Counted from the first letter of the stretch, positions 12,995 through 60,707 are shown. The stretch is 64,000 bases of DNA from Planctomycetia bacterium (GCA_030527205.1 JAUNBG010000010.1:21556-85555), one strand, 5' to 3'. The notes: generated by a model from the letters alone, not told the origin. Translations and numbers: made by a program.

Positions 12995-13101
12995 AGGAAG
13001 TTCTAAAAACAGTTTTTTGCAATAAACTTCATTTGTGAACGGCACAAAAACCGGTTCATGCGGACAAGACGTCCGTTCTCAGCGGGTTTTTAGAACTTCC
13101 T
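12995..13101 (+). repeat. MITE-like palindromic intergenic element, copy 1 (forward)
   Basis: AGGAAGTTCTAAAAAC ... GCGGACAAGACGTCCG ... GTTTTTAGAACTTCCT. Confidence 0.9.
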
Positions 13102-13162
13102 TTATCAATTAAACAGCGTCAAACGGTCTTTGAAACAATTCTCTTTTTAAATCGGCTTGAGT

Positions 13163-15247
13163 TTAAAAGGAAGCGTTTTCGCAGAGAATTAAAATACATT
13201 CCCAAGGATTGATTTTTGGAACAACAAATCGCCGATAAGGACCGTCAACGGAATCTGCTTGAACGATAACCGGTTCACAGGAACGATCATAAAAGGTTAT
13301 GAAATCAGAAGTTGTCTGAATCATAACGACCATATTTTCAGCGGAATCAAACGTTGCGTTCAAAGCGACCATTGCCGTTTTTCCCGATTCATCGGGCTGT
13401 CGAACCCAAAGATTAACGCGGTCGAACGACTCAATATAAGCGGGGAGTCGATCTTTGGAAAGCCAGCGCATGATATTTCGAATCTGCGACTGTTTGGGAC
13501 GACTATAAAAATAGGACCAAGGATAATATCCATTAACGCAAACGCGACCGCCCAACCGATTCTCAAAAACGCCAAGAATGGTTTCTGCAGTTTCTTTCGA
13601 TGAATAATCAATCGCAGAAGAAAGCGTTTCGACGCCGGGTTGAGTCTTTTTCAAACTAATCATTGGTTCCCGCCAAAAGGATTGGCGTTTATCTCGAGTT
13701 CGACCGCCAAAAGTTCCATTAAGGAAATGATCCTGATATTTTTCAATTCCGTCAACGCTGATTATGTCGCCATATTCCATTCCCGTTAAATCATTGAGCG
13801 CATAGGATTGAGGATCGTTCAACAACCCGAGCGCATCATTATCGGTATAAACGCCCTCTTTGAAATAAATTTGAATTTCTTCTCGACTTTTTTGAGAAAC
13901 AAAAGCGCGAGACAGGAGAAAAACGTTGCTGTTTCCCTTTGCATAAGCGACAGGAATTCCCGCTTCGCTAACGCCAGACGTTAAATATTGACTCGGAACT
14001 CGCAGCGGAAAATCAGCGTCGGTTCGTTCCCAAAGCGGATGAACGCCAACTAACGGTTGCCGTCCAAGATGTTGAACCAATAAATCATAAAAAGGGCGCC
14101 ATTGGCTCGCGGTTCGAATCATCGGTTCATTATCGTCAAGCGGTTCTTCATTCATCGTTAAGACATTAAAAGCGGCGCCTGTGCAGCCGGTCGCAATATA
14201 AACGGCAGCTTCTAGCGCTGTTACATTTTTGGCCTTTTCAAGCGGTTGATAAGGGAAATTCTCAATTTCCGACTGAATCATCTCAACCAGATTCGGCAAG
14301 AGAGAAACTTGACGACCGATTTCATGCGCTTTGCCGACCAATGAATAAATGCCGGAATGTTCATAAAAGCCGCCGCCTGGACGCCAATAAACGGGTTGAT
14401 CTTGATTGGGGCCGGCAAGCGTTTTGGCCCAACGCTCAAAATCATAACCTTCCTCATAACGTTCTCCGGTCATAAACCCAAGCGGCAGACCGGGACGTTT
14501 CTCATGAACAACTTCTTCAATCAGGGCAAATAAATTGTCGATTGAATCGCTGTTAAATTGATGTATTTTCGCTCGAATTTCCTGTTCATTAATATGAGTC
14601 AACAAATAATCTCGCGATATTTCCTGATCGAATTTTTCGGACATCAATTGCAAACAATAGTCGCAAAAACAGATGGAACCCGCTTCGCCTGTTGAATTGA
14701 GCATATGACCAACTCGAACATCGTCATCAATCCAAATATAATCGGGATCGGCTTCGGCTAAGGCGGCATAAATGCGTCGAATTCGCTCTCGAAAGATTTC
14801 CTGATTCATACAGAGCGTTCCTTCGGCAGTTTTTCCGTCGATTGTTATGCCTCGGGGACATTCTTGACCGATCGAATTCGGGAGATCTTCCGAATGATGC
14901 CCCAATGTACACAAAAGATTAATTCCGGCTCGATAACCCCGTTTCTTGCAAACGGCAATCCGTTCTTTCAAAAGAACGCAACGTTTGACAAGTTCGTCAT
15001 CGGGAATGGGCGAATGCGTTGTTTGCGTAAAAAAAGTAATTTCGTCCGTTGCGCCGGGATATTTGTCGAATAAATCCAGAAGCTGTTCAAATCTCGCGTC
15101 ATTCGACCAGATATTGATGCCGATTCGGAAGGTTATGGCGGCCTTTTTTCCGATCGTTTTTGAACTTTCGTCAGAATAAAGAAGCGAATATGTTGATGAC
15201 AACAAGAATAAAACGAATAAACCTGTCCCAATAATAAAATGTTTCAT
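13163..15247 (-). CDS. Secreted hypothetical protein (694 aa); no family recognised
   Basis: Long ORF with coding-like composition and an N-terminal signal (MKHFIIGTGLFVLFLLSS). The ATG at 15247 has a GGAGAA upstream. It is embedded among glycoside hydrolase genes. Confidence 0.6.
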   Translation of the reverse strand: MKHFIIGTGLFVLFLLSSTYSLLYSDESSKTIGKKAAITFRIGINIWSNDARFEQLLDLFDKYPGATDEITFFTQTTHSPIPDDELVKRCVLLKERIAVCKKRGYRAGINLLCTLGHHSEDLPNSIGQECPRGITIDGKTAEGTLCMNQEIFRERIRRIYAALAEADPDYIWIDDDVRVGHMLNSTGEAGSICFCDYCLQLMSEKFDQEISRDYLLTHINEQEIRAKIHQFNSDSIDNLFALIEEVVHEKRPGLPLGFMTGERYEEGYDFERWAKTLAGPNQDQPVYWRPGGGFYEHSGIYSLVGKAHEIGRQVSLLPNLVEMIQSEIENFPYQPLEKAKNVTALEAAVYIATGCTGAAFNVLTMNEEPLDDNEPMIRTASQWRPFYDLLVQHLGRQPLVGVHPLWERTDADFPLRVPSQYLTSGVSEAGIPVAYAKGNSNVFLLSRAFVSQKSREEIQIYFKEGVYTDNDALGLLNDPQSYALNDLTGMEYGDIISVDGIEKYQDHFLNGTFGGRTRDKRQSFWREPMISLKKTQPGVETLSSAIDYSSKETAETILGVFENRLGGRVCVNGYYPWSYFYSRPKQSQIRNIMRWLSKDRLPAYIESFDRVNLWVRQPDESGKTAMVALNATFDSAENMVVMIQTTSDFITFYDRSCEPVIVQADSVDGPYRRFVVPKINPWECILILCENASF

Positions 15248-15503
15248 AACAGGGTTCTCCAAATAGGGGACTTTCCAAATTTGTCAAAAAATAATAGGGC
15301 TCTCCCAATTTGTCAAAAAAATTATTTTACAGGAATTCCTGCTCGATAGCAATTGGAAAACAGGAATTCCGATAATAATTGTCAAACTGCCGCCCAAATG
15401 GCCAACAGTTTCGTCTTTTTATAAACCGTCGAGGCGACAGATTCTCGCTCCAATAATCTTTGGCGCTCAAACGATTTAAACTAAATGTTTACCGTTTTGA
15501 AAA

Positions 15504-18074: not shown

Positions 18075-18392
18075 GATAATCCCTTTAATTATCTCACGAA
18101 ATTTAATTAACAAAACAACAATCTTTCGTTTTGTATTAAATCGATTATTTCATACAGAAAATAATTATAATTCCGACGCTTAGGTTTTTCCTTTGCGCCG
18201 CATAACCTTTGATAATGCGGCTACAGAACTCGCCGCATTTCGGAAAAACTCAAGGAAAACGTCTATAACAAGCCGCATTAACTTGATTGAGAGTTAATAA
18301 AAGAATCCGTTGTCGCTTGAAATCAGTTTCAACCGTTTCGGCAGATTCCAAAACGGTTCAAGCGGCAAACGGAATAATGACAACCAAAAACC

Positions 18393-21224
18393 TTAAAGTT
18401 CCAGAATTTCGCCGTCCGCCAATTCGATGAAATGAATCGTTCCTGTTTCCTGATTTCGGAGTTTAAGTTTCAGCGTTTTGCCTTTTTCAAACGGTCCAAA
18501 ATCGGTTTTCAACTGATTTTTGTAAATCGCTTTCATTTTTTGCGTTACATTTTCCTGATCGTTCTTTTGAGTCGGCTCGAAAATTTCGATTTTCATCGCG
18601 GTTGAATCGCAACTCAAATCGCCGTTATTGCTGACCATAAAATCGATATATTGGAAAGAATCGTCAGAAATCTTCTCAATAAATTCAACGGCATCAACTC
18701 CGGTCGTTGCCCGGTTGCCCGTTGTCGGAAATGCTGAAATCGAACGAACCGTTCCGTCTTTTTCACAGATCGACATTTCATAAAAAATGCCGTCCATACT
18801 TCCTCGCGCCAGAATCGTTCCGGCCAACGTCAAACCCTTTTTGAACGATTGTTGTTTTGGCGTCCAGCGAACAAGAATCGCGGAATTTGGGTCAACAATC
18901 GGATGCGTCAAAAGAAAACGATTGAGTTGATCGGCGGGAATGACTTTATCGAATATCTGTTCCGTAAAATACATTTTCCAATTGACGTCCTGATTCGGGG
19001 ACGGATCATGATTCGCCAAAAAACCGAGACCGGAAGGATCGCCGCAACCAAAAGCGAACCCAGACGGAGTTCCATAAACATTCGCGCCGGAAGAGAGCGG
19101 AATCAAATTGCCTTCCGCAGACGTCGGTTGACGTTTGTCTTTCAGCAGCCAGTAAGACCAGGAACCGGTTTTCGCGCTGTCGTCAAAAACGGCGATTTGA
19201 TCGGTTTTGCCTGCCGGAGAAACATAATCGGCGGCCAAATCCGCAAGTTTATTTCCCTGGGCTTCAAACAGTTTTTCAATGGGACCTTTCGCTTTCGGAC
19301 CATAAAGAGCGGCGACAATGTCTTCGTAAGCCGAAGTTCGAGGTTCCGTAAAGAGTTCATCTTTCATCAAACGAACCGGAGCCGCGTCGTTCATATCGGG
19401 AATATAAAAATAGATATCCAGACTGCTCGGGTCTGTAAATTCTGTGAAGACGACGTCAACTTGATCCCCGCTTTTTTCGATATTTGTCCAGGCTTTGGCG
19501 GCAACTTTCTGACCATTCGGACGAATGGAATCATCGGCAATCGGTTCGCCAATGCTCGACGGATCAATAACCAAATCGCGATATTGGCCGATTTTCGATA
19601 AAAGTTCCGGATTCTGGGCTTCGCCGATTCCGAAAAGAACCGGGCCTCGCATTAAAGCAACGCGACCTTGCTGAGTCGCCCGACCAATAACGAGTCGCCA
19701 GCTCATCGGCATTGAAATTTGAACCGTATCGCCTGTTTTCCAAACGCGATTCAAAACATAACCGCCCAATTCGGATTCCGCTGGATTAATATCGATCGCT
19801 TTTTCATCGTTGACGCGAACCGTCATTGTTTCCGCCCAGCGAGGCGTTCGGAAACGGAACGCGAACTCAACCGGTCTGGAAACCGTAAAGCTCAATTTGA
19901 CTTCGCCGTCGTTCGGATAATTCGTCTCTTCCAGAATTTCGACTGTTGAGCCCTTAACTTCAAACGATTTTTGCGAATCCGTATAAAGATTCAACGCGAT
20001 TCCTTCATCGGGAGTTCGGAACCAAACCTTATTCGGGATTTCCGCAACGGCGCGTCGGAAGTTGCCATTACAGCAAAATGTATCAATTTCTTGAAATTGT
20101 CGCTTGCCTGTGAACGGCGTAAAATAGCAAATTCGACGACCATTCGGCTCTTGAGCCGCAAAAAGGGCGTTATAAATCGTTCGTTCAAGAATATCTCCGT
20201 AACGCAAATCGCCTTCAATCCGCATAAGACTGTCAAAGAGCCGCAAAAGATAAGCCGTCACGCAAGATTCTTCAACCGCTCCGGCGCCGTCTTGATTATA
20301 AGTAAAATACTCCCCTTGCGAACTGGAACCCGTAATAAGCAGAGCGCCATGCCCTTCTTCAAGAAGTTCATGTTTCATCCAACGGCTTTTTTTCAAAAGA
20401 TTTTCGTCGCCGCAAAGTCGATAGCGTTCCGTTTCCGGATACATATGCGACAGCATGACATAAAGATGAAAAGGACGATTCGGAATATTCGCTGCCCATT
20501 CGTCATACGGTTCATAAAACCAATGCGGTTCATATTGCAGATTACAGGCGTAATCCCAATATTTTTCTTCCCCGGTCAAACGATAAAGTTCGACAAAACC
20601 TTCGGCAATTCCGGCGATTGAAATGCCGGCGGGAATGTTATAAATCCCTTCTTCATTGATCGGGAACGATTTCATTATATAATCGGCCATAATTTTCGCG
20701 TCTTCCAGAGACTTTTTGTCCCCAGTCATCCGATAATGACGCGTCAAAGCCAAATTGATATATTCCTGTTCATGCAGAATCCAGTTGATATGATTCTGTT
20801 TATTGTTCGGTTCAACGTTCCAAAATCCCAAATAACCGTCTGCGTCGCGGGTTTTTCGAAGTTCGTCGATCAAATAATGCGTTCGAGCGTCAACTTTCGG
20901 GTCATTCGTATAAGCGGTAAAAAGACTTCCGGCGTCAATAACTTTCCCGATCCCATAATAAACGCTGCCCCGATCGCCTCGGTCTTCCCGATGACGAAAA
21001 TGGTTGAGCCAATGAGCATCAAAATCGACAACCATATAATTTTTGTAGATCAAATCCTGAATACGACGATCAAGTTCGCCGCCAAGTTCTTGACTATTGA
21101 GAACAACTCGTTGAAGGCCGTCCGTTACGACCGGTTGAACAACGTCTCGATCATCCGCAAAAACGAATGACAATGAGACACAATAAATCATAAACGACAC
21201 AATAAGCATTTTTTGTTTAATCAT
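18393..21224 (-). CDS. GH127/GH146-like (DUF1680) beta-L-arabinofuranosidase-family protein with a ~300-aa C-terminal extension
   Basis: 943 aa with a signal peptide. The spacing of ESCVTAY and FCCNGNFRR resembles the Glu-x-Cys and CC..N Zn/catalytic cysteine motifs of GH127. Confidence 0.65.
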   Translation of the reverse strand: MIKQKMLIVSFMIYCVSLSFVFADDRDVVQPVVTDGLQRVVLNSQELGGELDRRIQDLIYKNYMVVDFDAHWLNHFRHREDRGDRGSVYYGIGKVIDAGSLFTAYTNDPKVDARTHYLIDELRKTRDADGYLGFWNVEPNNKQNHINWILHEQEYINLALTRHYRMTGDKKSLEDAKIMADYIMKSFPINEEGIYNIPAGISIAGIAEGFVELYRLTGEEKYWDYACNLQYEPHWFYEPYDEWAANIPNRPFHLYVMLSHMYPETERYRLCGDENLLKKSRWMKHELLEEGHGALLITGSSSQGEYFTYNQDGAGAVEESCVTAYLLRLFDSLMRIEGDLRYGDILERTIYNALFAAQEPNGRRICYFTPFTGKRQFQEIDTFCCNGNFRRAVAEIPNKVWFRTPDEGIALNLYTDSQKSFEVKGSTVEILEETNYPNDGEVKLSFTVSRPVEFAFRFRTPRWAETMTVRVNDEKAIDINPAESELGGYVLNRVWKTGDTVQISMPMSWRLVIGRATQQGRVALMRGPVLFGIGEAQNPELLSKIGQYRDLVIDPSSIGEPIADDSIRPNGQKVAAKAWTNIEKSGDQVDVVFTEFTDPSSLDIYFYIPDMNDAAPVRLMKDELFTEPRTSAYEDIVAALYGPKAKGPIEKLFEAQGNKLADLAADYVSPAGKTDQIAVFDDSAKTGSWSYWLLKDKRQPTSAEGNLIPLSSGANVYGTPSGFAFGCGDPSGLGFLANHDPSPNQDVNWKMYFTEQIFDKVIPADQLNRFLLTHPIVDPNSAILVRWTPKQQSFKKGLTLAGTILARGSMDGIFYEMSICEKDGTVRSISAFPTTGNRATTGVDAVEFIEKISDDSFQYIDFMVSNNGDLSCDSTAMKIEIFEPTQKNDQENVTQKMKAIYKNQLKTDFGPFEKGKTLKLKLRNQETGTIHFIELADGEILEL

Positions 21225-22063: not shown

Positions 22064-23179
22064 TTACAGAGCCGAAACAGCTTTGCCGTCATTAACAACG
22101 CTCAGAGGATAAAGAACTTCATGCGGCGTCGTTACGGAAATCGGATGAACGGAACCGTCGCCATAAAGGAAATTGACAACGCTGGGATGAGCCGACCCGA
22201 ATTTATGTCCAGACCAACCGTCTTCTTCGCCCGGTAACGCAATAACTTCAGCCCAACCCGGATCGAAAGTTCGAGCGATTGACGTTACTGAAGTTCCATT
22301 TTCGCCCGCGCAAAGATAAGAGCAGTCGCCGCCAACCCAATCGCAGATTCCGAAAGTTGAAAAGTTCCCGCCATTATATGTATAATGTTTTTCGCCAAAA
22401 CAAAACTGATTGCTCGTTCCGTCTTTCATCCAGGAGAAATTATCGCGCGGTTTCCAGGTTTTCATGACGTCGCGTCCCGGAATTCCGTCAACGGTATAAT
22501 CGGATTTCGCAATTCGGAACGGACCGCGAAGATTATAACAATCAACCATTGAATGTTGATACCACATATTGCCGACAAGGTTTCCATTGGCGTCAAGTCC
22601 GCTGCAAACAACCATTGCATAACTGGTTTGCGGACCTTGAAAATATTGAGCCCCGCTTGTTCGGGACGCAGCGGTCGGTTTACTGATCATTGCGGGCGCA
22701 TTATGTCGGGAAGGACAAAGATAAGCCGAAACAGAACCAAACGCTTCGCGCTGTTCTTCAGTAAGCGGAGGAGCCATTCCAGAGAACAAAGTTTCGCTGC
22801 CCCACCAACAGTTGGTCGTCAACCCTTTGGAGAACGAATCGTTGTTATAACCGTCTGACGTATTGCAAATCAGGTCATACAATGAATTCTGTTCAAGATA
22901 AGGGAACAACAACGGAAAAATCGACATTCGATAAGGCGCCAAAACATTCGGCGGCAAACCGTTTTGCGTATCATGAAAATTATGAATCGCCAAACCGATT
23001 TGCTTCAGGTTATTTGTGCATTGCATACGGCGAGCCGCTTCTCGAGCTGCTTGAACAGCGGGCAAAAGAAGACCGATGAGAATTCCGATGATCGCAATGA
23101 CGACCAACAATTCGACAAGGGTAAACCCCTTTCGGAAGAGTTTGCCCCCCCCCTCAAATTTAACATTACTTGTAGACAT
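22064..23179 (-). CDS. DUF1559 protein with a prepilin-type N-terminal cleavage/methylation domain and an H-X9-DG motif
   Basis: [54 protein letters not shown] at the N-terminus and [14 protein letters not shown] near the C-terminus. The ATG at 23179 has a GGAGAA upstream. Confidence 0.85.
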
Positions 23180-23270
23180 TGAATTTTCTCCATTCAAAAA
23201 CAACAGCAAAAATAATGCTGTAAAGACAAAATTTTACGAACTGTATTATATGAAAGGAAAATATTGAAAA

Positions 23271-23380
23271 AGGAAGTTCTAAAAACTCGGATTTTGTAAC
23301 AACCCCAATTCGGCAAACAGCGTTAAAACCAGTTCCTTCGGACGAGACGTCCGCGCTCCGAAGGGGTTTCAGAACTTCCT
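23271..23380 (+). repeat. MITE-like palindromic intergenic element, copy 2 (forward)
   Basis: AGGAAGTTCTAAAAAC ... TCGGACGAGACGTCCGCGCTCC ... GGTTTCAGAACTTCCT. Confidence 0.9.
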
Positions 23381-26289: not shown

Positions 26290-26403
26290 AGGAAGTTCTC
26301 AACCTCCAGATTTTTCAACAAACGGATTTCGTATAAAAACGTTAAAACGAGTTTTTGCGGACGAGACGTCTGCGTTCCAAACGGGTTTTTAGGACGACTT
26401 CCT
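26290..26403 (+). repeat. MITE-like palindromic intergenic element, copy 3 (forward)
   Basis: AGGAAGTTCTCAAC ... CAACAAACGGATTTCG ... GCGGACGAGACGTCTGCGTTCC ... GTTTTTAGGACGACTTCCT. It ends 8 bp from the comM stop. Confidence 0.9.
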
Positions 26404-26410
26404 TATTATA

Positions 26411-33473: not shown

Positions 33474-33580
33474 AGGAAGTTTTAACCCCCTTAGGAGCGC
33501 GAACGCCTCATTCGCAAGAACTGATTTTAACGACTTTATCCGAAATGCGGTTGTTAAAAAATTCGGGTTTTTAGAATTCC
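33474..33580 (-). repeat. MITE-like palindromic intergenic element, copy 4 (reverse)
   Basis: AGGAAGTTTTAAC ... GGAGCGCGAACGCCTCATTCGC ... TTAACGACTTTATCCGAAATGCGGTTGTT ... GGGTTTTTAGAATTCC. It fills the gap between the convergent cmk and HEAT-protein stops. Confidence 0.9.
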
Positions 33581-33586
33581 ATAAAA

Positions 33587-37323: not shown

Positions 37324-37428
37324 AGGAAACTCAAAACCCTTAGGAACGCGGACGTCTCGTTCATGAACGGCTTTTAAAACATTTTTAGAATTGAATTAGT
37401 TGAAAAAGCCAGGTTTTTAGAACTTTCT
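37324..37428 (-). repeat. MITE-like palindromic intergenic element, copy 5 (reverse)
   Basis: AGGAAACTCAAAAC ... GGAACGCGGACGTCTCGTTC ... GGTTTTTAGAACTTTCT. It abuts the stop codon at 37429. Confidence 0.85.
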
Positions 37429-40084: not shown

Positions 40085-40404
40085 TAATCTTTTGTTTCTA
40101 ATATTTCTAACATTAAAATTTCTTCATATCAACGTCATAACCCCTATATTTTATCGTTATCTGCGTCCGTTATTTCTTTATTCATAAAAAGAAATTCCAG
40201 ACTTTTCAAATTTTATGTTTACGAACGTTCTCATTCGGAGAAGAGTCGTCTCGACCGTCCCAAACAGATATTCCGTCAGTTTGAAGCAAGCGTTAAATTG
40301 TTGGTCGCAGCCCCTATTCAGAATTCAAGATATATCAGGCAGGCAGAGCGTTTTAAATGCAGAGCGTTTTAAATAACGGATCTGTTTAACGAAATCCGTT
40401 TCCA

Positions 40405-40653
40405 TTGCGTCCCATTTTGGAGCTTCTGCTCGCTGACGGTTCATCGCTCCCATTATCCGCGTCGGTTGCTAAACGGTTATTTGACAACTTTTCGCAAGCT
40501 GATTTTATTGATAAATCTAAGTCTTGGGAACTTCCTGAAAAATTCCTTGAAGAGTTAGAATTAAATGACGTCGATGCGGAATGCGACGAAATTCGCAAAG
40601 ATAAATATCTTGCCAAACTCCGAGCAAAAGTTGCCCATTGGCAACCGGAATAG
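40405..40653 (+). CDS. Possible small acidic hypothetical protein (82 aa, TTG start)
   Basis: ORF only. It overlaps the 3' end of convergent yjbQ by 137 nt and no family was recognised. It may be a shadow ORF. Confidence 0.2.
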   Translation: MRPILELLLADGSSLPLSASVAKRLFDNFSQADFIDKSKSWELPEKFLEELELNDVDAECDEIRKDKYLAKLRAKVAHWQPE

Positions 40654-40957
40654 AAAGCGAAACGCTAAACAACGACGATTTTATATGAGCCGGCATATCG
40701 TCTTTTCCTTCAATAATATGCCGATAACTTGCCGTTTCTGGAGCCAAACGATCCAAACCGGAAATCAAATCCTCAAGAACGTCAGAATCGGCATTTTCAT
40801 TAATCGTCAGCGCTGCCGACGTATGCTGCAAAAACAAATGCAAAAGACCCGTTTGAACCTTTTGTATTTCCGGCAATTCTCTCAAAATATTTTGCGTAAT
40901 CGGATAAAATCCGAGAGAATGCGTCGGAAGGACCAGCGAACGTTGAACCCAATCCAT
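40517..40957 (-). CDS. yjbQ: YjbQ/UPF0047-family protein (secondary thiamine-phosphate synthase-like)
   Basis: GLLHLFLQHTSAALTINENADSDVLEDL and EGKDDMPAHIKSSL...GQLLLGVWQDIYLCEF are hallmark YjbQ blocks. The ATG at 40957 gives 146 aa. Confidence 0.8.
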   Translation of the reverse strand: MDWVQRSLVLPTHSLGFYPITQNILRELPEIQKVQTGLLHLFLQHTSAALTINENADSDVLEDLISGLDRLAPETASYRHIIEGKDDMPAHIKSSLFSVSLSIPVANGQLLLGVWQDIYLCEFRRIPHRRHLILTLQGIFQEVPKT

Positions 40958-41086
40958 TTTTCTCTCTTGAAATCTCCAGGCGTTTCTATTATATTTATTG
41001 AATAAGAAGATTTTCAATTCATTATTTTTTCATTTTCCCGCTATTTTATATATTAGCCGAATGTTTTGCGTTGAAAATCAAAAATT

Positions 41087-43698: not shown

Positions 43699-44035
43699 TA
43701 TAATAACATTCTATTACATAAAACAAAATATGCAAAAAACTATTCTAAAAACAATTCATTTAAAAAAAACGTTTTTAACAATCATACTCGAAAAACCTTG
43801 AAAAACAAGGGTTCCAAAGAAAGATTTTTAACAATTGGAATTTGTCGATGTTATTAAAATGATCAAAATGCCTGTCGCATTTAAGCAGGCAATAAAATAA
43901 TCGCATTGAGGCTTGCGTCCCCCAAACCAAAAGGTTTTAACTCGCTTTGAGCCCTTTATTTTAAACAAAATGCTTGTTTTGTTGAAATAAAATTCTGCGT
44001 TATTGAAAATTGTCGTTTCTTTTGTTATAAATAAA

Positions 44036-44144
44036 AGAAGTCCTGAAACCCCGCTTTTTAACAAACGCATTTGGATAAAGTTGTTCAAACCTGATTCTTG
44101 CGGACAAGACGTCCGCTTTCCTTAGGGGGGTTTTAGAATTTTCT
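44036..44144 (+). repeat. MITE-like palindromic intergenic element, copy 6 (forward, degenerate TIRs)
   Basis: AGAAGTCCTGAAAC ... TAACAAACGCATTTGGATAAAGTTGTTCAAAC ... GCGGACAAGACGTCCGC ... GGTTTTAGAATTTTCT. Confidence 0.85.
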
Positions 44145-44219: not shown

Positions 44220-45503
44220 ATGAAACGAAAACTTGCCTTGATCATTATGTTGTTGGGATTCTTTTTTGTTCTGAATAATGATTCGGAAGCACAAAACTGG
44301 TATCGCGGGAACCTTCATATGCATTCCTATTGGAGCGACGGCGTTGCCTTTCCGGAAGAAGCCATTTCGCTCTATCGGGACGAAGGTTATCAATTTGTTT
44401 GTCTTTCCGATCATAATCTTGCTCAAAACAATCCCGAGCGTTTTAATGAAATCAAGAATCGCCCGAGTCAAGAACTTATCGAACGATTTCAAAAGCGTTA
44501 TCCAGATTATCCTCTTGAGATTAAAGAAGAGGACGACAAAAAGTTTGTTCGACTCAAAACCTTTCAAGAACTTAAAAAACAACTTGAAAGTCCAGGCGAA
44601 TTTCTTTTGATTCCCGGTTTTGAATTGAGCGGCGGCGCCAAAAATGGCGTTCAAGTTCATATGAATCTGATTAATACAGAAGAAGGTCGAGCGTTTCCGT
44701 CTTTAGAAACAGAACATGAAACAATGGCCAAATGCCTTGAGTATACAACAGAAATATTCAAAGGACGCGAAAGCTCAACTTTTTTAATGCTGGATCATCC
44801 GGACTGGATTTATTTCGATATTGACCCGGGGATGATCATTGATAAAAAAGCGTTTCAGTTTTTCGAAGTCATTAATTGCGGACCGGTCTATGCGCCGCAT
44901 CCAAACGCCTGGACAACGGACAAATTCTGGGACGTTGTCAATGCGTTTCGAGCAGAAAAAGGCAATGAACCCCTTTATGGAATCGCGTCGGACGATACTC
45001 ATGATTATGTTCCGTTTTATCAACCGGCAGAAAAAGGAGAGCTCAATGGCGGAGGCGGTTGGGTTATGGTTCGAGCTCAAGAATTGACAACCGAAGCAAT
45101 CATTCAAGCGATGAAGGCGGGCGATTTTTATGCTTCGACTGGCGTCTTTCTTGACGATATTCAATTTAATCCGGAAACAAAGACTTTGTCGGTTAAGGTC
45201 AAGGCCGAAGAAAATGTCGATTATTCCATTTCTTTTATCGGAACGAAAAAAGGGTTTGATCAATCGGTTGCAACCGTTGAAGATCCAGCCAAGGATCGCA
45301 AGCCAGCGCGAACTTTGTCGGTTTATTCTGACGAAATCGGCGAAACTTTTGTTACGGTTCAGGGAACCGAAGCAACGTTTAAAATGAGCAATGATATTCT
45401 TTATGTTCGCGCAAAAATCGTTGCCAATAAAGAACCGCATCGAAAAATCAAAGGCAAACCAGATCGTCCAACCGCTTGGACGCAACCGATTTTCGCGCGA
45501 TAA
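44220..45503 (+). CDS. Secreted PHP-domain (CehA/McbA-like) metal-dependent phosphoesterase
   Basis: AAGGAAG RBS and a signal peptide. GNLHMHSYWSDG...FVCLSDHN PHP motif, and a later SDDTHD. Confidence 0.7.
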   Translation: MKRKLALIIMLLGFFFVLNNDSEAQNWYRGNLHMHSYWSDGVAFPEEAISLYRDEGYQFVCLSDHNLAQNNPERFNEIKNRPSQELIERFQKRYPDYPLEIKEEDDKKFVRLKTFQELKKQLESPGEFLLIPGFELSGGAKNGVQVHMNLINTEEGRAFPSLETEHETMAKCLEYTTEIFKGRESSTFLMLDHPDWIYFDIDPGMIIDKKAFQFFEVINCGPVYAPHPNAWTTDKFWDVVNAFRAEKGNEPLYGIASDDTHDYVPFYQPAEKGELNGGGGWVMVRAQELTTEAIIQAMKAGDFYASTGVFLDDIQFNPETKTLSVKVKAEENVDYSISFIGTKKGFDQSVATVEDPAKDRKPARTLSVYSDEIGETFVTVQGTEATFKMSNDILYVRAKIVANKEPHRKIKGKPDRPTAWTQPIFAR

Positions 45504-48054: not shown

Positions 48055-48230
48055 CGATACCGATTCCTTTAACTCCAAACCTTTTGAACCCCCTTTGATC
48101 TTTGTTCTCAAATTAAGGCTCAATTAGAATGGTCAAATCTTAAAGCAAAAGTTATCATTTGCAGACAAAACCAATTCTGACTGAGCCAGGTTTGATTTTC
48201 GTAAAGATCGTTATTCATTCTTTTTTCCAA

Positions 48231-48321
48231 CGGAACAATCTGACAATTCTTCTTTTTATGATATGAGAACCAAAGCGCAAGAATGTCGGGATCGCAAGAG
48301 AAACAAGCGAAAAAATCGATC
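48231..48321 (+). repeat. 91-bp inverted duplicate of the ftsK 3' coding end (arm A)
   Basis: 89/91 identical to the reverse complement of 51911-52001. It would encode EQSDNSSFYDMRTKAQECRDRKRNKRKNRS but lacks an upstream ORF. Confidence 0.9.
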
Positions 48322-48341
48322 GAATTCCCCAACAAGTTCAA

Positions 48342-50738: not shown

Positions 50739-51341
50739 TCAAAAACTGACTTTCGGCGCCTCTTTTTCTGAAGGATTGTTGATCTCGAATAACGACGCTT
50801 CGCTGAATTGAAAAAAGCCTGCAATAATATTGGACGGAAAAACTTCGCGTTGCGTATTATAAAGAGTAACGCCGTCATTATAAGCCTGTCGGGCAAAAGC
50901 GATTTTATTTTCGGTTGACGTTAATTCTTCCTGAAGGGCAAGCATATTTTGATTGGCTTTTAAATCTGGATATGCTTCACAGACAACCATTAAACGGCTC
51001 AACGCTCCTGTCAGTTCGCCTTCGGCGCCAGCCAGCGATTTCATCGCATTGGGATCGCCTGGATTCGTTGCCGCATTTTGGCCGGCATTCATTGCAACAT
51101 TTCTTGCTTGAATAACCGAGGCCAAGGTTTCCTGTTCATGTTTCAGATATCCTTTGACGGTTTCAATTAAGTTTGGTATCAAATCATAACGCCGTTTCAA
51201 TTGAACATCAATTTGAGCAAACGCATTTTTATAGCGATTGCGCAACTGAATCAGGCCATTATAAATACTGATTCCCCAAAACAGAATAATTAAACAGCCC
51301 CCCAACAAGATCAACAGAATTATTAAAATTGCTAAATTCAT
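50739..51341 (-). CDS. lemA: LemA-family protein
   Basis: 200 aa. An N-terminal TM segment, then YNGLIQLRNRYKNAFAQIDVQLKRRYDLIPNLIETVKGY. Confidence 0.9.
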   Translation of the reverse strand: MNLAILIILLILLGGCLIILFWGISIYNGLIQLRNRYKNAFAQIDVQLKRRYDLIPNLIETVKGYLKHEQETLASVIQARNVAMNAGQNAATNPGDPNAMKSLAGAEGELTGALSRLMVVCEAYPDLKANQNMLALQEELTSTENKIAFARQAYNDGVTLYNTQREVFPSNIIAGFFQFSEASLFEINNPSEKEAPKVSF

Positions 51342-51628: not shown

Positions 51629-51738
51629 AGGAAGTTCTAAAACCTGTTTTTTACAACAAACTCAATTCAGAAAATGTCGCGAAAACAAATTCCTGCGGAC
51701 GAGACGTCCTCGCTCCCAACGGGTTTTTAGAACTTCCT
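51629..51738 (+). repeat. MITE-like palindromic intergenic element, copy 7 (forward)
   Basis: AGGAAGTTCTAAAAC ... GCGGACGAGACGTCCTCGCTCC ... GGGTTTTTAGAACTTCCT. Confidence 0.9.
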
Positions 51739-51906: not shown

Positions 51907-54900
51907 TTAAGATCGATTTTTTCGCTTGTTTCTCTTGCGATCCCGACGTTCTTGCGCCTTGGTTCTCATATCATAAAAAGAAGAATTGTCAGATTGTTCC
52001 GATTGAAATTGCTTTTCTTTTTGTTGTTTGTCCCAAGAATCATAATATTGTTCCCATTGTTCATCTGACCAGCCTTTTTGTTGTTGATCATTTAAATCAT
52101 TTCGATTTTGAGAAGAAAATGAGTTCTTTCCTTTTTGGCGTTTTTTATTTCTGTAATCGCTATTATTGTTATAATCTTCATATTCGTCAATCAAATCGTC
52201 TTCGTATTCATCAAAAAACGAATCTAATTCCTGTTCATTGTTATAACGATAATCGTCATTTTCAAATTGTTCCTGATTCGACTTGGCGTTCCTGGAGAAC
52301 ATTGGCTTCGAATGAAACAAAATTTGACTGTTCGAATTAACAGAATTTTGCGGTTGATTCCGATGATTCAGATTATCTATATCGTTATCAATATCGTTAA
52401 AATTATTGTCATTGTTTTGGCTGTCAAAGTCATCCAAATCGTCTCCATTTCCCGATTGCTTAACGCGATTTGAACCAAAATGATTTAGATCGTTATTTGG
52501 AGAATTTTGATTCAAATAACTCTGATTGTTCGATTGCGAATAAGTTTGTTGAGAAGGACGGAAACGATTTTGAGAGTTATTATTTTGAAGCGAGAGATTC
52601 GATAAGTCCGAACCAGATTCGTTTTGACGGTTTTGCCATTCTTGATAACTGATAATGAGATCGCGCGGTTTGGACGGTTTGAAACGATCAACAGGCGAGA
52701 CGATTCCTTCCTGTTCCATCATTTCGATCATTTTTGCGGCGCGATTATAACCAACGCTGAATTTTCGTTGAATATAAGAAATGCTGGCTTTTCCTTTTTG
52801 AAAAACGGTTTCAACGGCAGCTTCATAATATTCATCCTTTTTCATTTGAATCAAATCATTAACGTCGTCGTCTTCGTCTTCGTCGTTTAACAAATCAATT
52901 TCAGAAATCATTTCCGATTCATCAAGTCCAATGGTCGAGATAACAGATTCGATTTCCTTATCTGAAACAAAGGTTCCCTGACCGCGAATAACCTGACTTG
53001 ATCCCGGTTTAAGAAAGAGCATATCGCCGTTTCCAAGCAATTGCTCAGCCCCTTTGCAATCGAGAACAACCTGACTGTCCGTTCGCGTCGCAACGCCAAA
53101 AGCAATTCGCGCTGGAAGATTCGACTTGATCAATCCAGTTATAACGTCAACAGTCGGTTTTTGCGTTGCAAGGACAAGATGAATTCCGACCGCTCGACTT
53201 TTTTGAGCCAAACGAATGATATGCCGTTCAACCTCTTTTCCCGCCGTCATAACAAGATCGGCCATTTCATCGGCAATGAGAACAATATAGGGCATTGACT
53301 TCGGAATGGCTGCCCATTCTTCTTCTGTTTGCGGTTTCATTCGATTCCGCAATTCGTCCGGAGTCAACTTATTATATTTGGTTATTTGATTGACCCCCGC
53401 CTGAGCAAGCAGCAAATATCGCTGTTCCATTTTTTCAACGGCCCATTCAAGAATCGCTTCCGCTTTCTTCATATCGATGACAACCGGATGCATCAAATGA
53501 GGGATCGTTTTGTAAGGACTCAACTCAACCATTTTGGGGTCAATCATAATCAATCGAACTTCATCCGGGCGACGCGTCATAAGAATCGACATAATGATCG
53601 AATTCAAGCAGACCGATTTTCCTGTTCCTGTTCGACCGGCAATCAATAAATGCGGCAGTTTAGCCAAATCCGTAACCATGGGATCGCCAATAACGTCTTT
53701 GCCCAAAAAAATGGGGATTTCCATTTGATTTGATTCTTCGACGCCCTCTTCCATAACTTCGCGCAAACGAACAAGTTGGCGATCCATATTGGGAAGTTCA
53801 ACGCCAACGGTTCCTTTGCCTGGAATCGGCGAAACGATTCGAACGCTTGGAACTTTCATTGCGATTTCAAGATCGCGCGTCAGCGCATGAATATTTTTAA
53901 CGCGTAAACCTTCCGAAAGAATAATTTCGAATAACGTCAAAACAGGACCGGTTTGAGTATCGACAACTTGAACATCCATTTTATAACTTTTGAAGGCTTT
54001 TTCGAGTTGAATTGCTCTCGCCAACGTTTTTTCATCCAAAACGGTATGATCATATTCTTCTTTTTCCTTGAGTAAATCAATCGGAGGATAATGATATTCC
54101 CGCTTTGGATATTCTTCCGTTTTGGTCAATTGAGTCAAGGATTTGTTTGACGTCGATTTTCCGTCTGACTCATTTTTATTGCTCAAAAAATGATTTGAAT
54201 CCGTTTCAAATGAAGTTGAATGATTCTCGCCCAATTGATTAACAAAACGATCAGGTTGTTCCGGAAAGTCGTTCGAATGAAAATGTTTAGAATCAGTTGA
54301 ATCGGAACCATCAAAACAATCAACATAACCCAAATGTTCAGGATTATCAGAAAGGGAATAAGACTTCGCCTTTTTCGACAACTGATCTGAATAAGCATAA
54401 TCGTTTGGGTTCAACTTAACTGTTGAATCCAATGCGGAAGTCTGGGTTGAGATTTCCGAATCGGTTGGCTTATGAGGTTTCTTTCGATTCTTGGGGCGTT
54501 TATAAAATTGTTTGATCAAATTCAATATAATTTCAGAACATTCATAAATTCCGCTGATAAAAAAGAAATATCGCAGCAAAATAAAATCGCCGATTAAAAT
54601 AGTTCCAGCAATAAAAAGACTGATCAAAAAGATCAAACAGCCAACCGGCACAAAAAAGTGAGACAAATAATAATGCAAAAGGGTTCCCCAATAACCTCCG
54701 GAACCAATGAGAGGCCCCAATGAATTCTGATTGAGCAAAAAAGAGCTCAATCCAGCCAAACCGCTTAAAATAAAAACCATTCCAACGGTTCGAAGGACAG
54801 GATGAGACAGGCCGTCTTTTTTCCAATAAAAAATAAGACTTAAAGCCCCAAAAAACGGAACTAAAAAACCAGCATAACCCAGCAACCCTAAAAGCCAGGC

Positions 54901-55290: not shown

Positions 55291-55398
55291 AGGAAGTTCA
55301 AAATCCCAGATTATTCAACAAACGCATTTCGGACAAAGTCATTGAAACTCGTTTCTGCAGACGAGACGTCCGCGCTCCCAACGGGGTTTAGAACTTCC
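55291..55398 (+). repeat. MITE-like palindromic intergenic element, copy 8 (forward)
   Basis: AGGAAGTTCAAAATC ... CAACAAACGCATTTCGGACAAAGTCATTGAAAC ... GCAGACGAGACGTCCGCGCTCC ... GGGGTTTAGAACTTCC. Confidence 0.9.
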
Positions 55399-55578
55399 AA
55401 ATAATAACAACAACTAACATAAAAGTAAACTCAAATCTCGTTGACAACCCCAAATCCTAAGAATGGCAACCCCGACGATAACGGGTCAATCATTCAAGCC
55501 AAACGCTGTCGCCCTTATCGGCTGCGATATATATAATTTTTGTTGGAATATTCTAGTCTTTTTACAGGAGTAAAACGA

Positions 55579-56892
55579 ATGTCGGCATTTCCGGAAATCT
55601 CAAAAATCAAGTTTGAAGGCCGCGAATCCAAAAACAATCTCGCTTTCCGCTATTATGATGAAAATGAAATGGTCGAAGGCAAACCGATGCGCGATCATTT
55701 TCGTTTCAGTTGCGCTTTTTGGCATACAATGCGGGCGTCGGGCAGCGATCCTTTTGGAGCGGGAACAATGTATCGCCCTTGGGAAGACGGAACCGATTCA
55801 ATCGCAAATGCTCAAAATCGAGTTCGCGTCTTCTTTGAAATTTGTGAAAAATTGAATTTAAAATATTTTAGTTTTCATGATCGCGATATTGCTCCAGAAG
55901 GTTTGACTCTTGCTGAATCGAATAACAATCTTGATGAAGTTGTCAAAGTTTTTAAAGAAGAATCGGATCGAACGGGCATCAAACTTCTTTGGGGAACTTC
56001 CAATCTTTTCGGAAATCCGCGATATATGCATGGAGCCGCAACAAGCTGTAATGCCGATTCTTTTGCTTATGCTGCAGCTCAAGTCAAAAAAATGCTTGAA
56101 GTAACCAAAGAACTCGACGGTCTGGGCTATACTTTTTGGGGCGGACGCGAAGGTTATCAATGTATTTGGAATACAGATATGAAGCGCGAAGCGGATCATC
56201 TTGCGCAATTCATGCATATGGCGATCGATTATGCGAAAGAAATCGGTTTTACGGGTCAATTCTATTTTGAGCCCAAACCCAAAGAACCGACGAAACATCA
56301 ATATGATTATGATTGCGCTGCCTGCATTAATTTCCTTCGAACTTATGATTTGCAAGATTATGTAAAAATGAATATTGAAACAAATCATGCAACTCTTGCG
56401 GGTCATAGCGTCGAGCATGAAATGGATTATGCGGGGAGTCAGGGGTTCTTAGGTTCGGTCGACGCTAATTCCGGCGATATGCTGCTCGGTTGGGATACGG
56501 ACCAATTTCCGACCGACGTTTATATGACGACCAAAATGATGCTTATTCTATTAAAATATGGCGGCTTCAAAACAGGCGGTTTGAACTTTGACGCAAAAGT
56601 CCGTCGAGAAAGTTTTGAACCGATTGATCTTTTTTATGCCCATATCGGCGGAATGGACGCTTTTGCTCTTGGTCTCAAAATTGCCGCTGCAATGCGGGCC
56701 TCCGGAGAAATTGCCGAAATGGTCAAAGATCGTTATTCGAGCTGGGATTCCGGAATTGGCGCTGAAATCGAAGCAGGCAAACATAATTTCAAATCCCTTT
56801 CTGAATATATGCTTCAAAAGGGCGAAATCTCCCCTTGTTCAAGCGGTCATCAGGAACTTTTCGAAAACATTGTCAATCGATATATGTTCTAA
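55579..56892 (+). CDS. xylA: Xylose isomerase
   Basis: [50 protein letters not shown] and the NHATLAGH motifs are collinear with XylA. Confidence 0.95.
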
Positions 56893-58177: not shown

Positions 58178-58214
58178 CGTTTATCATTCAATTGACTCGT
58201 TTTTATATTATATT

Positions 58215-58479
58215 AGAGAAAGTTCCCCAACCCCCTTCGGAGCGAGGTCGTCTCGTCTGCAGGAACAGGCGTTCTGTTAATGTTATAAATAGACGTTTGT
58301 TGTTTTTTTTTCAAAGAGCCTGGACGTCCTTTGGATCAGATGCGGACGAAACGTCCGCGCTCCATTCCTGTTTGTTCTGCGGCGGGGGCAACTGATAAAT
58401 AGGAATTCAACAGAGCTCTGGTTTTAACGACCTTATCCGAAATGCGTCTGTTGAAAAATCTGGATTTTTGGAACTTCCT
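58215..58479 (-). repeat. Composite or nested cluster of MITE-like element copies (copy 9a, a hairpin fragment, and deleted copy 9c)
   Basis: 58215-58321 is a degenerate full reverse copy. 58341-58365 is an isolated forward GCGGACGAAACGTCCGCGCTCC hairpin. 58401-58479 is a reverse copy lacking the hairpin module (AGGAATTCAA...GGTTTTAACGACCTTATCCGAAATGCG...TTTTTGGAACTTCCT). Confidence 0.75.
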
Positions 58480-58551
58480 TACATAATATTTATAATATTT
58501 GATCGACCGGTTTATTTCGAAAGACTTCATTGATCGTTTGAAAACCGGTTT

Positions 58552-59016
58552 TCATTTATGTTGTTCATTTGCTATCTCCGATTTTCGCGATACAGAATAG
58601 AACATTATCCGTCGGAAAAAGGGATTTTCGCGCAGCGAACAAGATAAAACTCCCCAAACGAGCGACAAAAACGACTCTTTTTCAAATGGAACTGCCGTTT
58701 TAAAAGCGATTTTAATAACGACGAACTCGGAAGTTTTAAAAAAGAAAGCGTCTTTGCGTTTTCGCCGCGACGCTGCGCGAACATTTCCAATATCATTACA
58801 AAAATCGGGCAAAAAGCAGTCATTTATACTGAAATCAATCTGAAAAAGGGTCATTGAGGCGTCCGATTTCATTTTTCGTATTCTGCCGTTGTTGACCGGT
58901 TTTGCCCGCGATGACTCAAGATTTTCAACAGACTTCAACATAATCGCAAAACAGATATTATGATCAATTACCAACAACTCTTTTGAAGGTTGAGCCAAAG
59001 AATAAAAAAACGACAA
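58552..59016 (-). CDS. Hypothetical ORF; weak coding evidence
   Basis: ORF only (TTG start; internal ATG at 58941). No family was recognised. Confidence 0.2.
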   Translation of the reverse strand: MSFFYSLAQPSKELLVIDHNICFAIMLKSVENLESSRAKPVNNGRIRKMKSDASMTLFQIDFSINDCFLPDFCNDIGNVRAASRRKRKDAFFFKTSEFVVIKIAFKTAVPFEKESFLSLVWGVLSCSLRENPFFRRIMFYSVSRKSEIANEQHK

Positions 59017-59050
59017 TCACAAAATCAAACACATTTCAAAAATTTTTTGA

Positions 59051-59365
59051 TCAGTTGAGATTAGGGGCGGCGCTATTAATAACAACCGGTTTTGAACCGA
59101 GAACCTGAGTTGTTCGAGAACGAGGCAGATCATAACCTGCTCCGCGAGCTTGAAGACTTCGCGGTCCAACAGTTGGATCAAGATAGGCATCGCAACCTTC
59201 TGTATAGACGCTTTGGGCTTCCTCATTGAGATAATTCGGCGTTTGTAAACTGGGATACCAAAACCTTTTGTTTTCCGGATTGTTATTCATTGTTTCGCAA
59301 CCAGACAGCCAGGCGAAAGAAAATAACAGGAGAAACATAATAAATATCGATTGATAATAATTCAT
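59051..59365 (-). CDS. Small lipoprotein, hypothetical
   Basis: 104 aa with an ATG start, a signal peptide and a lipobox (FAWLSGC). Confidence 0.5.
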   Translation of the reverse strand: MNYYQSIFIMFLLLFSFAWLSGCETMNNNPENKRFWYPSLQTPNYLNEEAQSVYTEGCDAYLDPTVGPRSLQARGAGYDLPRSRTTQVLGSKPVVINSAAPNLN

Positions 59366-59400
59366 TGTTTTTTATTAAAGTTCAACTTTCAATTCTTATC

Positions 59401-59511
59401 AGGAAGTTCTAAAAATCCTTCGGAGCGCGGACGTCTCGTCCGCCAAAACAGGTTTTAACGACATTTACCGAATTGGAGTTTGATGCAAAATCCAGTTTTT
59501 TAGAACTTCCT
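59401..59511 (-). repeat. MITE-like palindromic intergenic element, copy 10 (reverse)
   Basis: AGGAAGTTCTAAAAATCC TTCGGAGCGCGGACGTCTCGTCCGC ... GGTTTTAACGACATTTACCGAA ... AGTTTTTTAGAACTTCCT. Confidence 0.9.
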
Positions 59512-59695
59512 TTTATATAATCGTTATTCGCAAAACTTTTGGCCTCAAAGTCCCGTCTGTCATTGTCGAATCAAAAATCTGTGTTTTTCAATTGACTTAA
59601 GAATAACTTGTCATTTCCATTCTATTTTGAAACAATAACGTTTATTGACAAAAATGTCAATAGAAATGTTTTGATTATTTTCGAATGAAAAAACG

Positions 59696-60487
59696 ATGAA
59701 TGAACATAATATTTTAATAACTGGAGCGTCAGGCGGAATTGGAAGGGCAATTGTTCAGCAATTGGCTCAACCGAATCATCGGTTATTTCTTCAAGCAAAT
59801 CGTCATTTTGAAGAATTGCAACGTTTTTCAGAAAAATTGCGCGATCAGGGAACGATAATTGATCCGATTGCCGCAAACCTGGAATCGTATGCGGATCAGG
59901 ATTATTTGATTCGGTTCGTTAAGGAAAAGCTAACGACTTCTCATCAATTGACCGGAATTGTTTTAGCGGCGGGCGTTGATCTTATGTCGCAAGCAATCAA
60001 ACCGCTTTCTTTCGAATCCAAACTCGAAAAAATATGGAAAACCGACGTTTTGGCAACAGTTCGATTAGCAAGAGAATTGGGTTTTTGGATTAAAGAGTCA
60101 AAGTCCCTTTTTCAAGAAAGACAAACGCGACCAACATTCCTTTTTTTCGGTTGGGACGGCGTTGAACGCGGAATGGAAGGCGAAACCGCTCAACTTTATT
60201 CTTTAGCTAAAGGAGCCATTGTCGCTTTTGCAAAATCATTTGCTCAAGAAATGGCTCAAGCGGCTCGCGTTTTAACTATTTCGCCCGGTTGGATTCAAAC
60301 AACTTGGGGACAAAAAGCGTCTCCCGCCGCAAATCAGCGAGCTCTTTCTGAATCTTTGGCCAAACGTTGGGGATCGCCCGAAGAAATCGCTTCGATCGTT
60401 CGTTTTCTTCTTTCCGACGATTCTTCTTTTCTCAACTCCCAAAATATTATTGTCAACGGCGGGTTTAATTATCGAGCTGAGAACTGA
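59696..60487 (+). CDS. SDR-family oxidoreductase
   Basis: 263 aa. ITGASGGIGRAIVQQL and the YSLAKGA catalytic motif. Confidence 0.85.
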   Translation: MNEHNILITGASGGIGRAIVQQLAQPNHRLFLQANRHFEELQRFSEKLRDQGTIIDPIAANLESYADQDYLIRFVKEKLTTSHQLTGIVLAAGVDLMSQAIKPLSFESKLEKIWKTDVLATVRLARELGFWIKESKSLFQERQTRPTFLFFGWDGVERGMEGETAQLYSLAKGAIVAFAKSFAQEMAQAARVLTISPGWIQTTWGQKASPAANQRALSESLAKRWGSPEEIASIVRFLLSDDSSFLNSQNIIVNGGFNYRAEN

Positions 60488-60597
60488 AGAACTCTTCTCA
60501 TTCGCAGTTTGAACTCCAAAAATTCGATCAAATGCATTATTTTTGACAAGATGAAACAATCCGGTTTGACGCAAAAAAGAAAATCGCTTACAATATA

Positions 60598-60707
60598 AGG
60601 AAGTTCTAAGAACACAGATTTTTCAACAAACGCATTTCAAATAAAGTCGTTAAAACCTGGTCTTCGGACGAGATATCCGCGATCCTAAGTTTTTTTTAGA
60701 ACTTCCT
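60598..60707 (+). repeat. MITE-like palindromic intergenic element, copy 11 (forward)
   Basis: AGGAAGTTCTAAGAAC ... CAACAAACGCATTTCAAATAAAGTCGTTAAAAC ... TCGGACGAGATATCCGCGATCC ... TTTTTTTAGAACTTCCT. Confidence 0.9.

Follow-up and report, generated by a model that had tools for sequence, protein, structure and literature searches.

We describe a family of short palindromic repeats in a 64,000-nucleotide stretch of DNA from a Planctomycetia bacterium (GCA_030527205.1, JAUNBG010000010.1:21556-85555), which we will call the window and whose positions are counted from its first letter. The repeats are units of about 110 bp that are bounded by terminal inverted repeats (TIR) and enclose a small GC-rich hairpin. 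We consider it highly probable that they are miniature inverted-repeat transposable elements (MITE), which carry as cargo a hairpin of the kind seen in repetitive extragenic palindromic (REP) sequences. MITEs are common among bacteria, and the family itself is an ordinary kind of mobile DNA.

The family was delimited with an nhmmer profile, built from 10 aligned copies and scanned over the window. The scan recovers 10 full-length copies, with E-values from 1e-22 to 1e-31, and beyond these one composite locus (58217-58479) and one doubtful remnant (around 40231-40536). The same contig carries another full copy 6.1 kb before the window starts (L055 19818-19929, E = 1e-27), which brings the total to 12 copies over about 72 kb of one contig, 1 of them outside the window. 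The elements are 105 to 114 bp long, none contains an open reading frame (ORF), and a search for repeats also brings these loci together, some as direct and some as inverted repeats. In every copy, the 17-nt hairpin and its GCTCC tail are kept with 0 to 4 substitutions. A first-pass annotation, made from the sequence of the window, had described the same element of about 108 bp at 11 loci, 7 in forward and 4 in reverse orientation, with the hairpin followed by GCTCC as part of its architecture. The profile and the TIR counts bear out the loci, the orientations and this architecture, and only some of the ends had to be moved by 1-2 nt. The upstream copy also agrees with the expectation that the family is not restricted to the window.

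The TIR are 16 bp long (AGGAAGTTCTAAAAAC / GTTTTTAGAACTTCCT), and AGGAAGTTCTAAAAAC occurs 13 times in the window when up to 2 mismatches are allowed, against 0.05 occurrences expected from shuffles. Taking the A of AGGAAG and the T of CTTCCT as the ends of the element, we looked for a target-site duplication (TSD) by setting the k bases just before the element against the k bases just after it, in all 19 elements that have the TIR AGGAAGTTCTAAAAAC and with mismatched flank pairs as the null. For k = 4, the duplication is perfect in 6 of the 19 elements (0.56 expected) and has at most one mismatch in 11 of them (4.2 expected), an excess that a binomial estimate puts at about 1e-5; no signal was found in these 19 elements for k = 5-9. 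The perfect duplications are AAAA at 23271, TTTA at 51629, TATA at 60598, TTTG at the upstream copy, TAAA at L103 and TATT at L138. The 10-nt flanks are 89% A+T, compared with 59% for the window. Where the first-pass annotation saw no consistent TSD, the 19-element test thus reveals a significant A/T-rich duplication of exactly 4 bp. There is no conserved tetranucleotide 5' of the element, and for this reason, together with the TSD, we rejected an element of the IS200/IS605 type (PATE).

The same ends are also found in other genomes. Among genome representatives, the exact TIR 16-mer is present at 100 loci or more; among the matches listed, 89 are singletons in unrelated taxa, which look like chance, and 11 loci fall in two metagenome-assembled genomes (MAG) labelled Planctomycetaceae, CAYTLK01 and JAIRWK01. 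In CAYTLK01, pairs of TIR enclose elements of 230-260 bp (8 loci among the matches listed; elements at L068 5100-5347, L076 1437-1666, L103 2517-2775, L138 2567-2807 and L065 5323-5556), and in JAIRWK01 the enclosed elements measure about 100 bp (2 loci among the matches listed, L071 669-768 and L090 3855-3953). The interiors of these elements are unrelated to that of the window element, the window profile having no match there, and at L071 669-768 the same TIR surround two GC-rich hairpins in inverted arrangement. Such a distribution, with one TIR around several unrelated cargos, would fit a MITE family served by related transposases. The first-pass view of a non-autonomous, TIR-bounded, MITE-like family is thus supported on two sides, by the TSD and by the same TIR around unrelated cargo in other planctomycetes.

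A longer TIR-bounded segment, of 1.28 kb, was seen at L077 2149-3432, its left end having 3 mismatches. It contains part of a 250-bp element, an ORF of 186 aa without Pfam match and an inverted pair of REP-like hairpins. As a candidate insertion sequence (IS) it was rejected, since what it encloses is a fragment of a gene with a pair of hairpins, and no transposase; it may consist of two elements flanking captured DNA.

If the repeats are MITEs, each of them would be a passenger of about 110 bp that codes for nothing itself and is mobilized in trans, its 16-bp ends being recognized by a transposase. This enzyme would insert them into A/T-rich tetranucleotides through staggered cuts, whose repair would give the direct duplication of 4 bp, and a duplication of fixed length would point, from general knowledge of transposition, to a cut-and-paste enzyme of the DDE type. 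In a compact genome of about 41% GC, A/T-rich targets would be met at TAA stop codons and in the short stretches between genes, and copies would come to sit in promoter gaps and at stop codons because such target sites lie there. As for the hairpin, it was probably taken up by a founder element and would since have spread in this genome only as a part of the MITE.

All the copies are in intergenic DNA by the gene calls, as first annotated, and their orientation relative to the flanking genes is mixed. Copy 1 is outside any coding sequence (CDS) because the neighbouring gene starts at 12890, according to the gene calls of an independent assembly. Four gene ends are 0-7 nt away from a copy (comM 7 nt, cmk 1 nt, HEAT-repeat gene 4 nt, phosphodiesterase/LamG gene 0 nt), in agreement with the contacts with stop codons already reported for several copies. 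These contacts can be attributed to the preference for A/T-rich tetranucleotides as targets, the cmk stop being for example within a TAAA flank. Among the proteins encoded in the window, ComM is 100% identical to a protein of a MAG labelled Planctomycetia bacterium, and the DUF1559 and N-methyl proteins are in keeping with this phylum. The members of the family in the window are the following.

12995-13101, plus strand: copy 1, 107 bp, hairpin at 13060-13076, nhmmer E = 1.5e-23. Both TIR are perfect 16-mers; the flanks TCAC / TTAT have no TSD left. It lies between the start of gene 11928-12890 (minus strand) and the stop of gene 13163-15262 (minus strand).
23271-23380, plus strand: copy 2, 110 bp, hairpin at 23338-23354, nhmmer E = 3.6e-31. 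Perfect 4-bp TSD AAAA / AAAA; upstream of a DUF1559/N-methyl gene, 22064-23209 (minus strand).
26290-26403, plus strand: copy 3, 114 bp, hairpin at 26357-26373, nhmmer E = 1.2e-28. The right TIR has a 3-nt insertion; 7 nt separate the copy from the comM/YifB stop at 26411.
33474-33582, minus strand: copy 4, 109 bp, nhmmer E = 2.6e-28; in its hairpin, at 33499-33515, one pair of the stem is doubly compensated. It fills the gap between convergent cmk (stop 33472) and the HEAT-repeat gene (stop 33587); flanks TAAA / AAAA, with the TAA stop codon of cmk inside the flank.
37324-37428, minus strand: copy 5, 105 bp, nhmmer E = 3.8e-22, more degraded than any other copy, with its hairpin at 37348-37364. 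It abuts the stop of the phosphodiesterase/LamG gene 37429-39075 (minus strand); flanks TTAA / TTAT, one mismatch.
40231-40536, minus strand: possible degraded, interrupted remnant, low confidence. Element positions 1-60 match at 40536-40477 with E = 3.8e-4; for positions 57-95, the match at 40269-40231 has an E-value of 3 and is not significant. The gapped alignment is poor, and the remnant runs into the final codons of the UPF0047 gene 40517-41017 (minus strand).
44035-44144, plus strand: copy 6, 110 bp, hairpin at 44100-44116, nhmmer E = 1.8e-24. It is 75 nt upstream of a PHP-domain gene, 44220-45503 (plus strand).
51629-51738, plus strand: copy 7, 110 bp, hairpin at 51695-51711, nhmmer E = 3.1e-30. 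Perfect 4-bp TSD TTTA / TTTA; the neighbours are LemA, which starts at 51341, and ftsK, which stops at 51907.
55291-55399, plus strand: copy 8, 109 bp, hairpin at 55357-55373, nhmmer E = 1.4e-28. Divergent gap, with ftsK starting at 55113 on one side and the ORF 55540-56892 (plus strand) on the other.
58217-58479, minus strand: composite locus, 263 bp, three partial nhmmer matches, E = 9.7e-13, 1.9e-10 and 1.5e-3. It lies between a convergent PfkB kinase gene (stop 58177) and the ORF 58552-59016 (minus strand).
59401-59511, minus strand: copy 10, 111 bp, hairpin at 59427-59443, which is the consensus GCGGACGAGACGTCCGC followed by GCTCC, nhmmer E = 1.7e-30. Divergent gap between 59051-59365 (minus strand) and an SDR gene, 59696-60487 (plus strand).
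60598-60707, plus strand: copy 11, 110 bp, hairpin at 60664-60680, nhmmer E = 3.8e-27. Perfect 4-bp TSD TATA / TATA.

The composite locus can be read in two ways. In a gapped alignment, it is a whole element with an insert of about 152 nt after consensus position 61. In the other reading, it is made of a left part at 58479-58418 (positions 1-62), an intervening stretch that holds a reversed hairpin at 58342-58358, and a right part at 58302-58217 (positions 27-111). A promoter-like site, with 10 of 12 consensus positions, was also seen at 58468-58496: its -35 hexamer, TTGGAA, is in the outer TIR of the composite and it reads outward. The consensus TIR (TTAGAA) fits a -35 box less well, and this site may be a chance occurrence. 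Beside the copy upstream of the window, the adjoining gene is a restriction-modification gene of the MmeI type (L055 19962-21593; MmeI_Mtase and Eco57I, 1323 aa).

Some observations weigh against a MITE. Neither the window, nor the 8 kb upstream, nor the surroundings of the TIR matches listed in other genomes yielded an autonomous element or a transposase that has these ends. A perfect TSD is kept in only 4 of the 12 copies of this genome. The nearest relatives, judged from ComM (71-75% identity, 48-52% GC, different gene neighbours), have neither synteny nor a copy of the element in about 52 kb of their sequence. Finally, a function might lie behind the conservation of the internal blocks TTTTTCAACAAAC and GTTAAAAC and of the hairpin.

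Concerning the transposase, no such domain, Y1 included, was found in the sizeable ORFs of the window, and the first-pass statement that the window has none stands for these ORFs. The ORFs that are beside solo TIR in other genomes correspond to malate dehydrogenase, to RibBA or are unannotated. In viral contigs, the TIR 16-mer gives 48 single matches, consistent with chance, and the TIR string had no match in the literature, plasmid or phage records searched (by BLAST for plasmids and phages). The strict succession of TIR, hairpin and TIR has 0 matches in 185,579 GTDB species-representative genomes and in JGI metagenomes, collections to which the source MAG does not belong.

The inner hairpin, GCGGRCGAGACGYCCGC followed by GCTCC, has a GC-rich stem of 7 bp and a loop of 3 nt. 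It had been annotated as part of the architecture of the element; it is not private to it, as the same hairpin occurs in many metagenome contigs. Through a weak profile match, three hairpins were found in CAYTLK01 (GCGGGCGAGACGCCCGC followed by GCTCC) that are the window hairpin with an A-T pair changed to G-C. Metagenome contigs scanned for the pattern GCGGRCRAGACGYCCGCGYTCC contain at least 137 sites, in at least 120 contigs of 38-73% GC, where a rough estimate predicts few chance matches. The pattern leaves stem pair 5-13 free, and over the 137 sites listed this pair is G-C 92 times, A-T 42 times, G-T 3 times and never A-C. Other hairpins of the same contigs, found via the tail motif or through full pairing, number 50, against a total of 5 in reversed-sequence controls. 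They have compensated stems such as GCGACC...GGTCGC, GCCGGC...GCCGGC, GCGCGC...GCGCGC and GCGGCC...GGCCGC, with GGA or AGA as the loop. Half of the listed sites have further copies at 200 nt or less, often inverted, and in the listed contigs the hairpins have no strand bias relative to the neighbouring genes. Example loci are L195 159-219, L231 1074-1129 and L201 5478-5644 (within L156-L275), and L077 3004-3083 and 6344-6365. All these properties resemble those of REP sequences. Di Nocera et al. (2013, PMC3733652) define a REP as an imperfect palindrome of 20-40 bp with an unpaired GTAG (or CGTC) tag.

No enriched neighbour family was found among the top 25 Pfam families around the metagenome hairpins, which are flanked by ordinary housekeeping genes, and a rare Y1 transposase could escape such a count. 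Searched against Rfam, the hairpin dimers of other contigs give only sub-threshold matches to eukaryotic microRNA-precursor models, which are generic long hairpins, and the hairpin string is absent from Rfam, from plasmid and phage records and from the literature searched. Over the 72 kb of the present genome, the hairpin never occurs outside a TIR-bounded unit, and it is single within each element, two being found only in the composite locus.

Some arrangements of the hairpin in these contigs are worth recording. Around L269 100-260, the hairpin unit forms tandem arrays of 26 nt without spacers. At L225 3087-3329, four copies are within 250 nt and may lie in a coding repeat (...AGETPALP...). 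In L268, two REP-like hairpins (544-565 and 944-965) lie shortly before the start of a 16S rRNA gene, recognized at 1042-1411 by the Rfam model SSU_rRNA_bacteria with 323 bits, and this gene could serve as a taxonomic anchor for an organism that bears the hairpin.

The likeness with REP sequences leads to the first of the other possible explanations, in which the repeats would be REPIN- or BIME-like, or TIR repeats, and would owe their mobility to a HUH tyrosine transposase encoded once in the genome (a RAYT or a TIR-flanked 'TIRYT'). The GGAGC-tagged hairpin would then be the site of recognition and cleavage, and the long TIR would form the palindrome in which the REP is embedded. The number and the frequently inverted, clustered arrangement of the metagenome hairpins speak for it, as do the conserved unpaired tag next to a covarying stem and the inverted hairpin pair between the same TIR at L071 of JAIRWK01. 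In bacteria of the Planctomycetes-Verrucomicrobia-Chlamydiae (PVC) group, Di Nocera et al. (2013, PMC3733652) report REPs together with many tyrosine transposases, REP dimers inside long palindromes, and TIR repeat families that flank tyrosine transposase genes. We nevertheless regard this explanation as unlikely, because the 4-bp TSD is significant here. Indeed, HUH/Y1 transposases of the IS200/IS605 type insert without any target duplication. Moreover, the same TIR surrounds elements that do not have this hairpin, the hairpin is confined to the TIR unit in the 72 kb of this genome, its tag is TTNG+GAGC or CTGG+GAGC and not GTAG, and the window ORFs include no Y1 transposase gene.

Going further, one can ask whether the hairpin, written as GCGGRCG-AGA-CGYCCGC followed by GCTCC(CAG), is an uncatalogued, cross-phylum class of REP-like sequence that hitch-hikes in the planctomycete DDE-type MITEs. 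We put this forward only tentatively, as an idea that has the odds against it. If it were true, it would mean either the fusion of two mobile-DNA systems or the spread of a host-useful hairpin by a transposon, and the 16-bp TIR would be the sign of a transposase family present throughout the planctomycetes, which would have acquired such hairpins as cargo time and again.

A second alternative is that these are host-selected sites, such as a structured small RNA, a bidirectional terminator or mRNA-stabilizing stem, or a protein-binding palindrome. This question is connected to the age of the family. The pairwise identity of the 11 copies ranges from 57 to 83%, with a mean of 70%, and the conserved blocks are the TIR, the two internal blocks already named, and the hairpin with its tail. 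Pairing was examined in the cells of the TIR stem and of the hairpin in the 11-copy alignment, the null being obtained by shuffling the 3' letters among the copies. The paired cells amount to 89.1%, compared with 89.0% in the shuffles (about 89% of the TIR cells are paired across the 11 copies), and the covariation score is 0.118 in both cases, so that covariation is absent from the family. Where the stems have changed, the change is mostly a break on one side, the only doubly compensated pair being in copy 4. The pairing of the inserted copies is inherited and not maintained, since the conservation of each arm explains it fully, and there is no evidence of host-level selection on the structure. 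Decaying insertions would be expected to give this picture, and an RNA under selection would not. The family is old and most of its inserted copies are decaying. The first-pass annotation had proposed an old family under constraint: the age stands, given the 57-83% identity, and the constraint does not, given pairing at the level of the shuffles and the one-sided breaks.

Selection by the host could still be argued from the folding of both strands, which is far better than in shuffles (z from -3.0 to -4.5) and is due to the TIR and the hairpin. It could also be argued from the copies at gene ends and in promoter gaps, from several internal blocks that are better conserved than their surroundings, and from the stem of the metagenome hairpins, which covaries, tolerating G-T and lacking A-C. 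Against these points, the elements have no Rfam match, either at the gathering threshold or at E up to 1 (which agrees with the absence of a catalogued family noted at first pass), and one-sided breaks predominate in stems that show no covariation within the family. Relative to transcription, the window copies and the metagenome hairpins alike lie in either orientation. No T-run follows the hairpin, GCTCC being found in its place, and terminator-like sites are at chance in 50-64 kb (17 for 15.6 expected, only the composite locus being touched). As roles for the element, a terminator and an outward promoter were both set aside, there being no signal beyond chance in that stretch. The TSD and the presence of the same TIR around unrelated cargo also indicate insertion rather than evolution in situ. 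Altogether, we find host selection slightly less credible still than mobilization by a tyrosine transposase.

Lastly, an artefact of assembly or binning, which would come to mind as the source is a MAG, is hardly worth considering: the copies differ by 17-43%, each has unique flanks, and they are independently reproduced in the Logan contigs of run SRR24915838, from the same sample. In these data, contig L049 breaks inside the 26290 copy and L054 starts inside the 60598 copy, and contigs stop in the copies because repeats typically have this effect. Another Logan contig, of 39.8 kb, runs through the 12995 copy and on past the start of the window, where it holds the upstream copy.

At its other end, this 39.8-kb contig stops at about 18256, in the intergenic gap 18113-18393, where no copy of the element is present. 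The spot has GCCGCATTTCGGAAAAAC, which resembles the internal element block GCATTTCGGATAAAG, and a small hairpin. The window also contains an inverted duplication of 98 nt, 48224-48321 / 51911-52008, with 96% complementarity between its arms. The final 98 nt or so of the ftsK CDS make up one arm, and the other is 21 nt past the stop of an M48 peptidase gene. This duplication is unrelated to the MITE, with no TIR at its borders.

Taken as MITEs, the repeats account for the fragmentation of the short-read assembly of this genome and for the folded inserts of 110 bp that are found at stop codons and in promoter gaps, and they mark substrates of recombination, as exemplified by the composite at 58.2-58.5 kb. 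They also provide a first defined signature, made of the TIR and the TSD, for a MITE group that is common to several uncultured planctomycetes, and this signature can be used to hunt for the transposase. The hairpin, near-identical over contigs of 38-73% GC and with compensatory changes in its stem, would be the more interesting object if it is truly undescribed. As a class of its own, it would allow a direct test of the way in which REP-like hairpins spread, and of whether a cellular role causes them to be retained.

How these elements relate to known systems can now be considered. Correia elements have TIR of 26 bp, duplicate a TA dinucleotide, and carry a site for the integration host factor (IHF) as well as outward promoters. 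The family described here is like these Neisseria elements (CREE/NEMIS) in its size class, about 100-155 bp, in having TIR, in its density near genes and in the long hairpin it would give in a transcript. It differs from them by a 16-bp TIR of unrelated sequence and by a 4-bp TSD, with no IHF-like site or terminator signal evident. The term "Correia-like", used at first pass, is therefore good as an analogy and wrong as a membership, as the sequence and the length of the TIR and the TSD all differ.

With REP, REPIN and BIME sequences (PMC3733652, PMC3116915), the likeness is in the GC-rich stem, the unpaired conserved tag, the inverted pairs or clusters found elsewhere and the lack of strand bias. 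Read on the opposite strand, the GCTCC(CAG) of the tail becomes a tag, (C/T)TNG-GAGC, which precedes the stem and is not GTAG; it resembles the GTGGGAG... of the group I REPs of Pseudomonas fluorescens and recalls the degenerate GTGG tags that PMC3733652 reports for Opitutus. REPINs are typically inverted dimers able to fold into a long hairpin, and their repeats flank a cognate RAYT gene. What separates our elements from REPINs is the unit of about 110 bp, with its long TIR and 4-bp TSD, and the hairpin that is single and only inside this TIR unit.

The closest comparison is with the bacterial MITEs, for example RUP of Streptococcus pneumoniae and those derived from IS, which are catalogued together with their parent. 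The present family differs from them by its REP-like hairpin as cargo, by a TIR string absent from the literature, plasmids and phages searched, and by its host, known as a MAG of an uncultured Planctomycetia. It shares with them the short non-coding unit with TIR and a short TSD, the many copies dispersed in intergenic DNA in both orientations without a transposase of their own, and ends that are common to elements with differing interiors.

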